From contig JBMCWH010000003.1 in assembly GCA_048621635.1 (NCBI GenBank), positions 1-63,760 on the forward strand: 63,760 nt of DNA, given 5' to 3'. Below the pieces are notes generated by a model, which did no database searches, was not told the DNA's origin, and worked only from the letters and a program-made list of their open reading frames with translations. Shown here piece after piece: positions 3,056 to 63,760 of the stretch (positions within the stretch are counted from its first letter, which is position 1; the number at the start of each line of letters is the position of its first letter). Position numbers and translations under genes: made by a program. Origin of the DNA: Patescibacteria group bacterium. GTDB lineage: Bacteria > Patescibacteriota > WWE3 > JAUXAW01 > JAYEID01.

Positions 3056-3125
3056 TGAACCCGACGTGGTTCATGCAGTGTACCCCACGTGGTACACTGC
3101 AGTGAACTCAACGTAGTTCACTGCA
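3056..3125 (+). repeat. Three tandem hairpins immediately 3' of tRNA-Asn, with a shared loop motif C-N-ACGT
   Basis: The hairpins are TGAACC-cgacgt-GGTTCA, TGCAGTGTACC-ccacgt-GGTACACTGCA and TGCAGTGAACT-caacgt-AGTTCACTGCA. The stems differ but the loops are conserved. No T-tract follows. Confidence 0.7.
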
Positions 3126-3396
3126 TAAACAACTGCCATTCTTCATGTTAAACTCAAGTAATGTTTTACGTTTACGTTCTTCTAAGTTTAAAAATCTACA
3201 AGTTTTTACATTAGTTTTGCTACTAGATTAAAAAAACGTGTTAAAAAATATAGCCGGAGTGAAAGTACTTCTGTGTCTAAAAGACTGTTGCCGGAATTGA
3301 TTTAGTGTGGAATCCAAGGTGTTTAGGGACTTTACGTTTTTCATTTTTTTGTTAAATTTAAACAGTAAGCAATTGATAAATTAGTAAAAAATTTTT

Positions 3397-7585: not shown

Positions 7586-7984
7586 ACTAGTCCGAATTCT
7601 TTGTCTCCAGAATCAGCCAGTTAGCAGAGCAACCTACCTTGGCGGTTATTGATAATTCTATTAGTTTTTTTTAAAATTTCCTGCTTTGCTTAGGAATTCA
7701 ATACAAGGGGAAAGCCAATTCCCTTCCGTCTTTAATTTAGGTGTTTTTTTTATCTTTTTCTGTAGGCTGGCACAGAAAAAGACCTGATGAAGGGTTTTGA
7801 GTTTCCCTTGCTACCTATTTTGTATATTTTAGGTATGTCCTAAACTGTACTTTTATCGTGTCCCAAACCTTGTTCTGGTAATGCGATGTTCTAGTTTGGA
7901 TGGTAATCCTTTGTATGTACTTCGACAGGCTCAGGGCAAAGATACCATTACTGGCGTAAGGTATTTTTTGATATACTAAGATGT

Positions 7985-9291: not shown

Positions 9292-9882
9292 TTAGAAGCG
9301 AAAGGTGTCTATTAAGAAAAGTAAATCACTTTGCAACAGTTGCAGTAGTTCCATGCCCGTGAAAATCATTAAACTTCCGATTGTGAACCATTTAATTGTT
9401 GGCTTGTTGATTTTTCTTGCGAGGTAGGTAAAAATTGGTCCGAGTATAATGCCGGGCAGAGGTGTCCAGAGTAGAAACTCGAATATTTCAATAATAGAAA
9501 CAACATGTGTTTTTATATTGGAACTTATAGTGGATAGTTTTTGGGAGATGGGATTACGAGGCTGTGTTTTGGAAGGGATTGTGCTTATTAGGGAGACAGG
9601 TTTGGCATGTACACAGCGGTATCCTGAGTAAAGATCGAATTTTGTATAGCGGTAGCCGGGTTTGAGGGAACAAAGAAGACCTTCTACGTAGAAGGTTGGG
9701 TGGATGTATGTTTTCCAGGGTGTCTCTTCTTCGTTGGATTCAGCGATGGGTAGAAAAGACATGTCCCCAGAGTATTTATGTCTTAGATATTTTGATAGGA
9801 TTAACTGGTCGAAAACAATCAAAAAGTGTAGTAAAAATATTCCCAAAGCAAACACAAATAAAGCTTTTCTTATTAATTTCAT
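9292..9882 (-). CDS. Hypothetical membrane protein
   Basis: 196 aa with an N-terminal signal/TM helix and two C-terminal TM helices. Preferred over the overlapping + strand ORFs. Confidence 0.4.
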   Translation of the reverse strand: MKLIRKALFVFALGIFLLHFLIVFDQLILSKYLRHKYSGDMSFLPIAESNEEETPWKTYIHPTFYVEGLLCSLKPGYRYTKFDLYSGYRCVHAKPVSLISTIPSKTQPRNPISQKLSTISSNIKTHVVSIIEIFEFLLWTPLPGIILGPIFTYLARKINKPTIKWFTIGSLMIFTGMELLQLLQSDLLFLIDTFRF

Positions 9883-11020: not shown

Positions 11021-11584
11021 TTATTTTTCTCGAGTAGGAAAACGTTTGTGATACTCTTCTTGTGCTTCTCTTATTAATTTTTTTGCTTTCTTTGCTTGTC
11101 CCCAAGAGCCTACGTTGATTTCTTTTTCTGGCTGTAAGGCTGCGTATGTTTCCCAAAAACTTTCAATTTCTTTTTTGACGTGATCACTTATTTTGGAAAG
11201 TTTGTCCATTTCTTCAAAGCGCGGGTCGTTGCTAGGAATAGCAATTATCTTGCTGTCTTTTTTCCCACTATCAATTACTTCCAACATTCCTATAGGATTA
11301 GTTGTTAGTAAACATCCCGGAAAGGTAGTAAAGGTGGAAAGTACCATTATGTCCAAAGGATCCCCATCTTCTTTGCTGAATGTTTGGGGAATGAATCCGT
11401 ATTCGGTAGGATAAAAAACGGAACTGTACAAGGCACGATCTAATTTAAAAACACCAAGATCTTTGTTGTATTCATATTTATTACTTTTCCCACGGGGTAT
11501 TTCTACTACACAGAATACTTTATTTGGGGGGTTAGGTCCTGCAGGCAGATTGTGGAAGAGATTGTTTGTAGTTTGGTCTTCCAT
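11021..11584 (-). CDS. ppa: Inorganic pyrophosphatase (family I)
   Basis: Contains VVEIPRGKSNKYEY, LDRALYSSVFYPTEYGFIPQT and DGDPLDIMVL. The ORF extends to a GTG at 11647, but the ATG at 11584 gives a typical length of 187 aa. Confidence 0.9.
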   Translation of the reverse strand: MEDQTTNNLFHNLPAGPNPPNKVFCVVEIPRGKSNKYEYNKDLGVFKLDRALYSSVFYPTEYGFIPQTFSKEDGDPLDIMVLSTFTTFPGCLLTTNPIGMLEVIDSGKKDSKIIAIPSNDPRFEEMDKLSKISDHVKKEIESFWETYAALQPEKEINVGSWGQAKKAKKLIREAQEEYHKRFPTREK

Positions 11585-11679: not shown

Positions 11680-12105
11680 ATGGAAGCAAAGCAACTTAGA
11701 GAACATACTTGGGCTATCCGAATTGCACGGGGGGAAAGGTTGGTTTCTAGTTTGGAGGATTTTTGTCAGCAAAAGGATATAGCTGGGGGCTTTTTCTTTG
11801 GCGTGGGGGCAGTAGGTTTTGTGGAGCTGGCTCATTACGATGTTGGAGAGAAGAATTATCAATCTCAGGAGTTCGAAGAACCTTTAGAACTGGTTAGTTT
11901 GGAAGGGAGTATAGGGTGCAAAAAAGATAGCCTTATTGTTCATGCCCATGCTGTTTTGTCTCGCCCCGATATGGAGACAATTGGAGGGCATTTGGTAGAA
12001 GGTGTTGTTTCGGGGACAGCAGAAATTTATCTGATTACATCTTCTCCTTTGGAGAAAGAACCGGATGAGATAACAGGCTTGGACCTTTTCTCCTTTTCCT
12101 CTTGA
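11680..12105 (+). CDS. PPC (DUF296) domain protein
   Basis: 141 aa. The pattern RIARGERLVSSLEDFC..GVGAV..VEL..Y....VSLEGSI...VHAHAVL...GGHL is typical of PPC/DUF296. Confidence 0.65.
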   Translation: MEAKQLREHTWAIRIARGERLVSSLEDFCQQKDIAGGFFFGVGAVGFVELAHYDVGEKNYQSQEFEEPLELVSLEGSIGCKKDSLIVHAHAVLSRPDMETIGGHLVEGVVSGTAEIYLITSSPLEKEPDEITGLDLFSFSS

Positions 12106-33049: not shown

Positions 33050-33126
33050 GGGCCTGTAGCTCAGTGGTTTAGAGCGCCATCCTTATAAGATGGATGTCCC
33101 TGGTTCGAATCCAGGCAGGCCCACCA
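33050..33126 (+). tRNA. tRNA-Ile with anticodon TAT (UAU), CCA encoded
   Basis: Perfect 77-nt cloverleaf: GGGCCTG/CAGGCCC acceptor, GCTC/GAGC D stem, CCATC-CTTATAA-GATGG anticodon arm, CCTGG-TTCGAAT-CCAGG T arm. Confidence 0.85.
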
Positions 33127-33375
33127 TCCTCCTTCGCCGCGCCTGCCTGCCGGCAAGGCAGGGCTTCGGAGGACCTTCGGTCCGAACGAAACCCGTGCAG
33201 GGGAGATGCCCCTCGTAGTTCCGATTAGTCGGAACGAAGTGAGGCAAAGTACACCTTACGGCCCTTTGCTAAAGCTATGGACGACAGGCCAGGTGGCCTA
33301 CGGGCATCCGGACGCGAGTTTAGACGAAGGAGTGTCGTTTCCGTAGCCTTGTGCGAAAGGGCACATCAATGTAGG
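33127..33375 (+). repeat. GC-rich multi-hairpin block 3' of tRNA-Ile(UAU), related to the ITS and rRNA-insertion modules
   Basis: Stems closed by tetraloop-like sequences: GGACC-ttcg-GTCC, CCTGCC..GGCAGG, GTTCCG-attagt-CGGAAC. The 23-mer GCGAGTTTAGACGAAGGAGTGTC (33314-33336) matches 62806-62828 at 22/23 positions. It ends with CCTTGTGC-gaaa-GGGCACATCAA, like the start of the rRNA insertion. Confidence 0.7.
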
Positions 33376-37963: not shown

Positions 37964-38104
37964 TCACGACATCCAAAGTTGCCGAAGGCAACTTCCGCCG
38001 GGATGCCCCGTTGGAAACGAGCGTTAGCGAGTTTTGGATAACGGGGCAGCGATTTTACGGCAGGGTAGCTCAGGTGGCAGATAATAATTTGACAGACTTT
38101 TAAG

Positions 38105-60268: not shown

Positions 60269-60281
60269 TGCCCTTTAACAG
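60269..60281 (+). promoter_or_regulatory. boxA-like antitermination element in the rRNA leader
   Basis: TGCCCTTTAACAG versus the E. coli rrn boxA TGCTCTTTAACAA (11/13). It sits just after a hairpin and T-run in the leader. Confidence 0.5.
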
Positions 60282-60304
60282 TTAAAAAGTAGAAGGAACC
60301 AAAA

Positions 60305-61944
<1,640 letters not shown>

Positions 61945-62246
61945 AAAGGAGTACCTTATAATCTCTTATCCAATCTGAGTTAATTCATATAATCGATCAT
62001 ATGTGAGTTACTGGTGAAGAGAATGGTTTCAATTTTTCACAATTGAAACTGGATCGAGTTTGCTAGATTAGCTTAAATCTAGTACTGACCTGTGATTTTT
62101 CGCAGGTGGCGTTCCTTCTACTTTTTAGCTGTTAAGGCAGAGATTTTTGTCTTTAGAAGATTGAGTTTGTTGAGACCTCCTTCGCTGAAGCTACGGAGGA
62201 CCAATTCAACTAACCAGATTCTAGTAAAAATTTGGAGTTTTATTAG

Positions 62247-62323
62247 GCGCGTGTAGCTCAGCGGCTTAGAGCACTTCTCTGATAAGGAAGGGGTCCGTGG
62301 TTCGAGTCCACGCACGCGCACCA
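62247..62323 (+). tRNA. tRNA-Ile (GAT) in the 16S-23S spacer, CCA encoded
   Basis: GCGCGTG/CACGCGC acceptor, anticodon loop CTGATAA, CGTGG-TTCGAGT-CCACG T arm. Confidence 0.9.
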
Positions 62324-62440
62324 CTTTTCGCTCTTGACGAGCTACGGATGGCCGTCGGCCACCCCGAAGCGAGTCTAAGCGAAGGAGTGTCACTCATAGC
62401 CCTGCCTCGCCGGCAGGTAGGCAGGCTTGGCGAAGGGTGG
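62324..62440 (+). repeat. GC-rich hairpin element following tRNA-Ile (ITS copy A)
   Basis: About 85% identical by eye to 62759-62872. The closing stem pairs CCACTTTTCGC (which includes the tRNA CCA) with GCGAAGGGTGG. Confidence 0.75.
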
Positions 62441-62681
62441 CAAAGCATAGTTTCTCGGAAAATTGCTAATGAAATCTGGATTGTTACAAAATTTAATATT
62501 TACCTTAGCGTTCAGATTCTCCCTAGATTTCCTTTTTTAAGTAATTTTCCGGAACTGAATTCTGATTACCGTTGGGTTGAAGGGTCTCGTTGAGCCTCTT
62601 GGCTCCGGCACGCTTAGCGTGCCTTCGCTCGAGACTAATTCCGACCATCCAAATTTGAAGACGAATTTGGGATTTCATTGA

Positions 62682-62758
62682 GGGGCTGTGGCGCAGTTGG
62701 CTAGCGCACCACATTTGCAGTGTGAAGGTCGTGGGTTCGAATCCCACCAGCTCCACCA
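62682..62758 (+). tRNA. tRNA-Ala (TGC) in the 16S-23S spacer, CCA encoded
   Basis: GGGGCTG/CAGCTCC acceptor with the G3:U70 Ala identity pair, and anticodon loop TTTGCAG. Confidence 0.9.
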
Positions 62759-62872
62759 CCCTTCGCTCTTAATGAGCTACGGGTGGCCTTCGGCCATCCC
62801 AAGTAGCGAGTTTAGACGAGGGAGTGTCACCCATAGCCTTGCCTCGTCGGCAGGTAGGCTTGGCGACGGGTG
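62759..62872 (+). repeat. GC-rich hairpin element following tRNA-Ala (ITS copy B)
   Basis: Homologous to copy A. The closing stem pairs CACCCTTCGC with GCGACGGGTG. Confidence 0.75.
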
Positions 62873-63032
62873 ACCGAAAATGTTTGTGCGAAACAAGTTG
62901 AGTTATTTAAGCAGCACATTTTAGCCTGCGATGTATATCGCTGGTTGAATTTTGCTACTTGTGTGGCAATCTACTTCGCACTTTGAAAACTAAATAGCAG
63001 GAACGAATATGCAAAATCCGTATAGAATACTC

Positions 63033-63760
<728 letters not shown>

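Follow-up and report, generated by a model that had tools for sequence, protein, structure and literature searches.

Two similar GC-rich elements, E1 and E2, lie directly behind the two tRNA genes of a 16S-23S rRNA spacer in a Patescibacteria group bacterium (WWE3; assembly GCA_048621635.1). We analysed the 63,760-nucleotide stretch that contains them (contig JBMCWH010000003.1, positions 1 to 63,760), referred to here as the window. Our results suggest that E1 and E2 are probably two copies of a non-autonomous palindromic DNA repeat of the repetitive extragenic palindromic (REP), REPIN or bacterial interspersed mosaic element (BIME) kind, with a preference for the ends of tRNA genes; they do not look like a conserved device for tRNA processing. 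The family to which they belong is multi-copy, palindromic and extragenic, occurs in both orientations and as inverted dimers or clusters, is absent from orthologous sites in relatives and shows no excess of G.U pairs, and this combination points to a repeat of that kind acting at the level of DNA. An initial annotation had offered two views of the elements, either processing or sequestration structures that could compete with tRNA 3'-end maturation, or a tRNA-targeting repeat family. The latter is supported by a multi-copy core in many phyla, by at least 15 copies docked on a tRNA CCA end and by copies in the D-arms of truncated tRNA copies. The former, taken as a conserved device, is not supported, as three syntenic relatives keep the spacer tRNAs without E1/E2, one of them with an unrelated repeat in that place. 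A preference of REP-type elements for tRNA gene ends has apparently not been described.

Results

The rRNA operon closes the window, with the 16S gene at 60305-61942 and the 23S gene from 63034 (Rfam). The spacer between them measures 1091 nt, as the earlier estimate of about 1.09 kb had it, and encodes tRNA-Ile(GAT) at 62247-62323 (+ strand; Rfam tRNA 67.1 bits) and tRNA-Ala(TGC) at 62682-62758 (+ strand), both found by ARAGORN and both with an encoded CCA. E1 (62324-62442, + strand) extends from the first base past the CCA of tRNA-Ile through ..GGGTGGCA, and E2 (62759-62874, + strand), as placed by its alignment to E1, begins right past the CCA of tRNA-Ala. The two composite palindromic elements are spaced 435 nt apart and share 88% identity over about 118 nt (about 85% had been read by eye), with a likeness that begins at the CACCA common to both tRNAs. 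Their G+C content is about 60% by eye, compared with about 40% for the genome. Two core motifs picked out in the initial annotation occur in the window only at E1 and E2 at up to 3 mismatches, with 0.00-0.04 occurrences expected. On the + strand, E1 folds at -58.9 kcal/mol (z -4.2 against shuffled sequences) and E2 at -61.6 kcal/mol (z -5.2); the margin over shuffles is smaller on the - strand (z -2.6 and -3.9, respectively). Neither element matched an Rfam family at the gathering threshold or at E<=10. Among nine other loci that carry the core (loci are numbered with the prefix L), the only Rfam match involving the core was a sub-threshold one in L005 (2649-2780) to sX4, a Xanthomonas sRNA, at 39 bits against a gathering score of 70. 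The match covers a tRNA-Ser together with its trailing module, and sX4 itself may be a tRNA-plus-trailer transcript.

Each element is built from variants of a core hairpin of about 33 nt, CCNCC-UUC-GCUC(U)-loop-(R)GAGC-UWC-GGNGG. In this module a basal stem, P1 (5-6 bp), leads through UUC into a second stem, P2, made of GCUC(U) and (R)GAGC around a loop of 3-5 nt, and UAC or UUC leads back to the other side of P1 (P1'); the 3x3 internal loop UUC/UWC is conserved. A covariance model made from the distinct core sequences (R1) was scanned over the window. Module 1 of E1 (62321-62351, + strand; R1 41.7 bits, E 4e-8) has a P1 of CCACUU/GGAUGG with one C.A mismatch and two G.U pairs, the loop UUC/UAC and the P2 GCUC/GAGC. 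In module 1 of E2 (62756-62786, + strand; R1 50.8 bits, E 2e-10) the same loop and P2 stand on a P1 of CCACCC/GGGUGG, with 6/6 pairs formed. The stem takes in the tRNA itself, since the last three bases of tRNA-Ile are the 5' side of P1 in E1 and the CCA of tRNA-Ala is the outer part of P1 in E2.

The 3' part of each element is a further hairpin, module 2, which reads GUGUCACUC-AUA-GCC..GGC-GAA-GGGUGGC in E1 (62387-62441, + strand) and GUCACCC-AUA-GCC..GGC-GAC-GGGUGAC in E2 (62826-62874, + strand). Both are present in the minimum free energy (MFE) fold, and the stem covaries (in seven homologues). Module 2 is an inverted core, because its internal loop (RUA/GAA) is complementary to that of the core. 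Nested within it is an apical hairpin of 25 nt in E1 (62402-62426, + strand; MFE fold) and 21 nt in E2 (62839-62859, + strand); one metagenome copy lacks the 21-nt hairpin, and the loose end at 62841 reads GCGAAGGGTGAC... The middle segment of E2, GUAGCGAGUUUAGACGAGGGAGUG (62803-62826, + strand), pairs with module 1 in the MFE fold and is by eye a degenerate inverted copy of it. In the form AGCGAG-YUUAG-..GARGGAGUG this segment is nearly invariant among the full-length copies aligned below (E-type copies). Each of E1 and E2 can thus be described as one forward module, a degenerate inverted module (the one judged by eye) and a second inverted module. Forward and inverted modules lie about 65-70 nt apart in E1, E2, L007, L204, L205 and L210.

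The E-type alignment comprises seven full copies (E1, E2, three from Saccharibacteria metagenome-assembled genomes (MAGs) and two from metagenome contigs), which follow seven different tRNAs. Four of the seven pairs in the module 2 stem are doubly changed among these copies, and P1 is a perfect CCACCC/GGGUGG in six of the seven. The 3' strand of P1 has a second partner, a downstream GGCCAYCC segment with which it makes the hairpin P3 (GGAUGGCC-GUC-GGCCACCC at 62346-62364 in E1, + strand; MFE fold and pair table). P1 and P3 are mutually exclusive, and both are able to form in every E-type copy. The initial annotation had instead drawn a long closing stem, CCAC..UUCGC with GCGA.GGGUGG, between the tRNA end and the far end of each element. 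This stem is possible on paper, with 11/11 pairs in E1 and 9/11 in E2, but it lies outside the MFE fold, which consists of two hairpins, and it is not conserved in the seven homologues: the inner CCUUCGC/GCGAAGG is invariant, and the four outer pairs at the tRNA end are unpaired in 4, 2, 4 and 4 of the seven, without compensating change. Covariation favours the local stems, namely that of module 2 and P1, whose 6 bp (CCA+NCC with GGN-UGG) covary across the family. Since the CCA pairing is real in this local form, a side effect on 3'-end maturation is conceivable.

To define the family, one genome per GTDB species was scanned with the exact core TTCGCTCTTNNNGAGCTACGG, giving 83 matches in 81 loci, where about 17 were expected by chance (calculated as 2 x 596 Gb / 4^18). 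The search beyond this operon suggested in the initial annotation thus found copies well outside it, many of them at tRNAs. The flanking CCNCC..GGNGG stem is present at nearly all exact-core matches; it is absent at L053, from a MAG labelled Singulisphaera, which for this reason is probably a chance match. Carriers include Saccharibacteria, Peribacteria, Paceibacterota and other Patescibacteria, Dependentiae, Verrucomicrobia, Alpha- and Gammaproteobacteria, one contig binned as an Asgard archaeon and two Lewinellaceae MAGs (38 matches together). The same scan with the module 2 motif GGAGTGTCACNCATAGCCNNGCC gave 0 matches, and this motif is not conserved outside the present lineage. Among 48 distinct core sequences, three P1 pairs have changed on both sides, and the 41 cells counted compare with 14.3±2.7 in shuffled alignments (0 of 500 shuffles reached the observed value). 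The invariance of P2 follows from the design of the search, which used the exact core. Non-Watson-Crick positions in P1 are G.U in 9 cases and A.C in 17, so that G.U is not favoured on the sense strand. This lack of preference, together with modules in both orientations within one element, fits a DNA palindrome.

The 38 exact-core matches in Lewinellaceae fall in 36 loci, and 37 of them are intergenic. Twenty-nine of these 37 are located 10-50 nt past a co-oriented open reading frame (ORF), and a tRNA is found in none of the 36 loci. In this group (L004, L009, L010, L013, L031 and others) the core is embedded, on one or both sides, in tandem units of 8-9 nt (GAGGAAYN, TTGATTTG, CGTATCAAT). Seven modules are found within 3.6 kb of L204. 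When contigs of the source mat metagenomes were aligned to the spacer, diverged copies were seen elsewhere, with the 5' module unchanged. Some of these contigs carry the element alone (about 92% identical), and others agree with the spacer and tRNA until they part from the window sequence at 62324 or 62759. A metagenome scan for E-type copies gave four matches, two of them true. A scan of viral contigs with a 14-base pattern returned mostly chance matches and only about 8 model matches in 0.67 Mb, which argues against a link of the family to phages. A keyword search of the literature found no description of this hairpin family, and searches with sequence strings gave primers only. Among RNA-seq runs, none was found to contain the stretch.

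At least 15 core copies sit flush against a tRNA CCA on the tRNA strand: L005 (three, behind all of its tRNAs), L007, L021, L024, L026, L040, L047, L065, L075, L204, L205 and the window (two). The tRNAs concerned are those for Ile, Ala, Lys, Met, Arg, Leu, Ser and Gln, and all tRNA-linked copies are in the sense orientation. P1 reads CCANCC/GGNUGG at tRNAs and YCCNCC/GGNGGR elsewhere, a shift which suggests that the stem has co-varied to take in the CCA. In L011, an 8-kb array of 18 tRNA genes, one tRNA of the 18 carries the element. A further module there follows a tRNA-Ala(UGC)-like gene at about 7738-7812 (- strand), read by eye, which has unusual D and T arms and was missed by ARAGORN. A second kind of site is found inside tRNA sequences. 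In L012, L040 and L052 the module lies within a truncated tRNA copy, exactly past nt 12 (after ..UAGCU), and the tRNA is present again in intact form 50-100 nt downstream; L017 and L020 have the same arrangement with tRNA-Gln. At 8968-9040 of L211, just ahead of the intact tRNA-Ile, a GC-rich hairpin splits the 5' fragment of a tRNA-Ile-like gene (GGGCUGUUAGCUCAGCCGGUUAGA), in a manner like the D-arm insertions of L012, L040 and L052. In L204 a 27-nt AT-rich hairpin (1409-1445) separates tRNA-Ser from its element and is flanked by repeated CCGCCA, the 3' end of the tRNA; the sequence suggests that another small insertion took place here, with duplication of 6 nt.

Relatives of the operon were found through MnmA, which is encoded just upstream of the 16S gene. 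Three contigs (L207, L210 and L211) have the same gene order with an rRNA operon downstream, and share with the window the mnmA-rrn synteny and the spacer tRNA-Ile and tRNA-Ala. None of the three has core modules or E1/E2 at its spacer tRNAs. In L207, whose MnmA is 59% identical to that of the window, each spacer tRNA is trailed by another repeat of about 100 nt, near-identical at both sites and unrelated to E1/E2; in L210 and L211 neither kind of repeat is present. The window spacer past E1 re-aligns with the L207 spacer past its own repeat, and thus different elements occupy one and the same slot. The L207 repeats (11375-11480 behind tRNA-Ile and 11884-11980 behind tRNA-Ala) form a second tRNA-trailing family, which directly after the CCA reads CCCCGACAUCCAAA-hairpin-UUCCGUCGGGG-CAGG.... 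A diverged copy of it follows tRNA-Met in the window (37964-38003), with compensating changes in the inner hairpin.

The core family also enters an rRNA gene. The 23S gene of L210 holds an inverted dimer within 9706-9828 (9708-9750 on the + strand and 9782-9824 on the - strand; R1 31.2 and 28.6 bits). Judged by eye, this dimer occupies the 23S position at which the window carries an insertion of a different family. The window has homologous insertions of about 180 nt, 90-92% identical and of a family other than E1/E2, in both its 16S (60374-60551) and 23S (63315-63471) genes. The 16S insertion folds as one long hairpin (-96 kcal/mol, z -8.6). The two look like the same intervening-sequence-like element in both rRNA genes.

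Elsewhere in the 64-kb window, R1 brings the total to three clusters and one solo module, and three of the six tRNAs carry an element of this family. The solo module (62173-62202, + strand; R1 24.1 bits, E 0.0012) has a collapsed P2 (CCUCC-UUCGCU-GA-AGCUAC-GGAGG) and lies 45 nt upstream of tRNA-Ile. It is the first of two partial copies that the initial annotation had placed upstream of the tRNAs (at about 62176-62200), and it proved real; the corresponding position of the L207 spacer differs by inspection, and R1 had no match in L207. The other supposed copy, GTGCCTTCGCTCGAG (62620-62633, + strand), did not hold up, as it is a 9-nt match that has only CCTTCGCTC in common with the core and gives no R1 match. 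The block around 62620 lines up by eye with CCTCGAAACTAATTC of the L207 spacer and, given both observations, is probably ordinary spacer. The third cluster, E3 (33127-33365, + strand), directly follows tRNA-Ile(TAT) (33050-33126) and was recognised from its sequence, its fold and weak R1 matches (33125-33164, + strand; 33207-33246, - strand). It is a diverged array, about 240 nt long, of at least four modules with the same grammar. Right after the CCA it opens with UCCUCC-UUC-..-UUC-GGAGGA, and it includes GCCCCUC-GUA-GUUCC..GGAAC-GAA-GUGAGGC and an E-type 3' half (33305-33362). The trailer of tRNA-Asn (3056-3130) contains different short repeated hairpins (GTTCAYTGCAG.., three times). A 25-nt inverted repeat (60275-60299 and 62111-62135; 96% complementary) flanks the 16S gene on both sides as the usual processing stem, and boxA-like sequences are present at 60270-60283 and 62978-62992.

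Several known motifs were considered by inspection and rejected for E1/E2. A hammerhead ribozyme would rest on CUUGAUGAG, which is present in some copies only and in a variable loop, and no architecture matches an HDV-like or hatchet ribozyme cutting its own 5' end. GCUCUURAY resembles an rrn boxA, yet the operon already has boxA-like sequences at the two places just given. In an archaeal bulge-helix-bulge the 3-nt strands would need a 4-bp offset, and here they face each other. A K-turn or loop E is possible for the GUA/GAA strand only, UNCG tetraloops would have the wrong closing pairs, and the trailer could pair with its own tRNA's D-arm in the case of tRNA-Ile but not in that of tRNA-Ala.

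Discussion

The E1/E2 family resembles REP sequences. REPs are GTAG-tagged palindromes found downstream of ORFs, often as inverted dimers 20-100 bp apart (PMC3733652), and the Y1 transposase TnpA_REP cuts at CT/CA sites selected by GTAG (PMC8266576). The present family has the same general features as REP, REPIN and BIME elements (PMC3733652, PMC3116915, PMC8266576), being made of short GC-rich imperfect palindromes that are extragenic and multi-copy, with GTAG on one strand (though with its GTA in an internal loop), CA or CT near the stem, and inverted dimers or clusters located mostly downstream of ORFs. P1 and P2 together make an imperfect palindrome of about 33 nt, inside the 20-40 nt range of REPs and with compensating changes, and many extragenic copies per genome as well as inverted dimers and clusters are found. 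The strand opposite the core, CC-GTAG-CTC..GAG-CGAAGG, is a GTAG-tagged, REP-like palindrome; the tag is CC-GTAG-CTC on the minus strand of module 1, and the plus strand of module 2 has ATAG (E1, E2) or GTAG (E3, L204). Docking on tRNA CCA ends and D-arms is a difference, since it is not reported for the elements described in PMC3733652, PMC3116915 and PMC8266576, and the hosts here include Patescibacteria.

A plausible course of events would start with each element inserting at the precise junction where the CCA of a spacer tRNA gene had met the original spacer. In most copies a CA stands one or two bases past the stem. Together with GTAG on one strand and the terminal CA of the tRNA at the left border, this suggests movement, present or past, as a single-stranded DNA hairpin by an HUH/Y1 enzyme (RAYT- or IS200-like). 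Such an enzyme would cut past CA or CT, using the terminal CA of the tRNA on the left and the CA or CT that follows most modules on the right, and the UGG of the element may act as a guide that pairs with the target CCA. Once in place, the elements would be co-transcribed with the operon and would have to be cut from the pre-rRNA. With the CCA locked in a stable helix and stable hairpins beyond it, 3' exonucleases would presumably be unable to trim through, and an endonuclease cut would be needed. RNase III acting on the long imperfect hairpins would be the likeliest source of this cut, as for rRNA intervening sequences, given that the hairpins are of about 25 bp and that the same module occurs as an insertion in a 23S gene. 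Occlusion of the CCA is then a consequence of insertion and not its purpose; the absence of the element from relatives and from half of the tRNAs of the window makes a dedicated regulatory role unlikely.

A number of observations weigh against assigning the family to the REP-like repeats. The GTA is located within the 3x3 internal loop between P1 and P2 and not unpaired outside the hairpin, whereas in canonical REPs the GTAG is unpaired at the foot of one long stem of at least 7 bp. A 19-nt core common across phyla is unusual for REPs, whose sequences normally differ among lineages, and could mean a constraint at the level of the host. The uniform orientation at tRNAs and the maintained pairing with the CCA would also fit an RNA function. 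A phmmer search with E. coli RayT found no homology in six-frame ORFs of the window and the 81 loci, which at about 0.6 Mb sample each genome only in small part, and among the first 25 of 88 Pfam families listed for 79 neighbouring ORFs there was no Y1 family, only housekeeping functions without a recurrent family. Finally, the copies examined gave no direct sign of transposition, whether as an observed event, a target duplication or an excision footprint.

An RNA function is the alternative that deserves most attention. The element could be a functional module of the tRNA precursor, in which P1 hides the CCA and P3 (GGNUGG with a downstream CCAN) frees it, so as to time or direct 3' cleavage or to protect the CCA until the spacer is processed. 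P1 does take in the CCA and covaries, the exclusive stems P1 and P3 can both form in every E-type copy, every tRNA-linked copy is sense to its tRNA, the core is conserved across phyla, and the + strand folds beat shuffles at z -4 to -5. A device of this kind would be expected at orthologous tRNAs, but different genomes have the element past different tRNAs, and processing of the same spacer tRNAs in the three syntenic relatives dispenses with it. Only 3/6 tRNAs in the window and 1/18 in the L011 array (plus the atypical tRNA-Ala read by eye) carry it, about 37 Lewinellaceae copies have no tRNA nearby, the same module also occurs inverted and within a 23S gene, and G.U is not favoured over A.C on the sense strand. 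We therefore consider an RNA device unlikely. Still less probable, in our judgement, is a domesticated 3'-end hairpin, serving as a factor-independent terminator or a block to 3' exonucleases past tRNAs and ORFs and made repetitive by convergent selection for very stable structure. The 29/37 Lewinellaceae copies located 10-50 nt past a co-oriented ORF would suit such a role, as would the copies past tRNAs, which mark the end of the mature RNA, and REPs downstream of ORFs are reported to stabilise the upstream mRNA (PMC3733652). However, the GC-rich hairpin lacks the U tract of an intrinsic terminator and is followed by CARG or GC-rich sequence instead, E1 and E2 lie inside an operon that needs read-through to the 23S gene, copies are also found within a 23S gene and in tRNA D-arms, and convergence cannot explain a common 19-nt sequence or inverted dimers.

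Two further explanations concern the origin of the copies. The minus strand of the core, CC-GUAGCUC-NNNAA-GAGCG-AAGG, resembles by inspection nt ~5-30 of a tRNA with a shortened D-loop, matching U8 A9 G10CUC13 .. A21 G22AGC25 G26 of typical tRNAs (compare tRNA-Ile(TAT)), and in L064 the module adjoins antisense tRNA fragments. The modules could thus be decayed remnants of inverted tRNA pseudogenes, an idea for which we see very little chance: the "D-loop" has a fixed length of 5 nt, neither an anticodon nor a T arm comes after it, and copies within a genome resemble each other and not the local tRNAs, many of them sharing one P1 type. The resemblance more likely reflects an origin from, or mimicry of, a tRNA gene. 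A simple local duplication, in which one trailer was copied with or next to the neighbouring tRNA without any wider family, was suggested by two copies that are 435 nt apart and 88% identical. It can be practically dismissed, since the tRNAs are different genes with a likeness only from CACCA on, a third cluster lies 29 kb away, R1 has further matches in the window, E-type copies follow seven different tRNAs, and the core is spread over 81 GTDB loci.

Other mobile or tRNA-binding systems share part of these features with the REP-like repeat that we favour. Like rRNA intervening sequences, E1 and E2 are small hairpin insertions in rRNA operon transcripts that are absent in relatives, and the L210 dimer places their core family inside a 23S gene. 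However, E1 and E2 lie in the spacer past tRNAs and not within mature rRNA, so that their membership is by analogy only, and removal by RNase III would be a presumed feature in their case. IS200/IS605 elements and their miniature derivatives (PATEs) have strand-specific hairpin ends and insert 3' of a short guide-paired target without target duplication; their end hairpins are direct whereas the modules here are inverted, no tnpA/tnpB is nearby, and here the target would be no more than CCA or CA. A preference for the 3' end that leaves the tRNA intact is also seen in integrative elements that target tRNA genes. The present elements differ in their size (35-120 nt), in encoding no integrase, in the lack of a tRNA 3'-half repeat at the far end, and in the entry of the module into D-arms and rRNA. 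Pairing of UGG with the CCA of a tRNA is known from the T-box discriminator bulge and the RNase P L15 loop, but these rely on conserved RNA architectures and act, in trans, on the ends of tRNAs that are mature or nearly so, and here the pairing is in cis, in a repeat hairpin without an Rfam match. As for miniature inverted-repeat transposable elements, inverted termini (CCACCCTTCGC / GCGACGGGTGA) are present without the fixed-length target duplication of that class: no flanking duplication is found at E1, E2 or the D-arm insertions, and the tRNA sequence is contiguous across the insertions in L040 and L052.

A broader scenario can be proposed, although we regard it as speculative and would sooner doubt it than rely on it. 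Hairpin repeats common to several phyla, derived from or mimicking the tRNA acceptor and D-arm, may home to tRNA genes (past the CCA by means of a UGG guide, or past ..GUAGCU in the D-arm), be moved by a single-stranded DNA enzyme and persist because their transcripts are self-contained hairpins excised by RNases. On this view the family would be a REPIN-like replicator directed at tRNAs and common in Patescibacteria, from which rRNA intervening sequences might have arisen.

If E1 and E2 are indeed REP-like repeats, colonisation by repeats, and not regulation, would account for the long, GC-rich spacers of these small genomes and for their odd tRNA trailers, and annotators and those searching for RNA motifs should mask the family. 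REP-like elements would be extended to the Patescibacteria with a defined target, the CCA end of tRNAs, which could make the insertion step of REPs and REPINs testable. The presence of a module of the same family in a 23S gene would tie spacer repeats to rRNA intervening sequences, the origin of which is unsettled. Finally, a CCA held in a stable helix would pose the question of how organisms with few RNases finish the 3' ends of their tRNAs.

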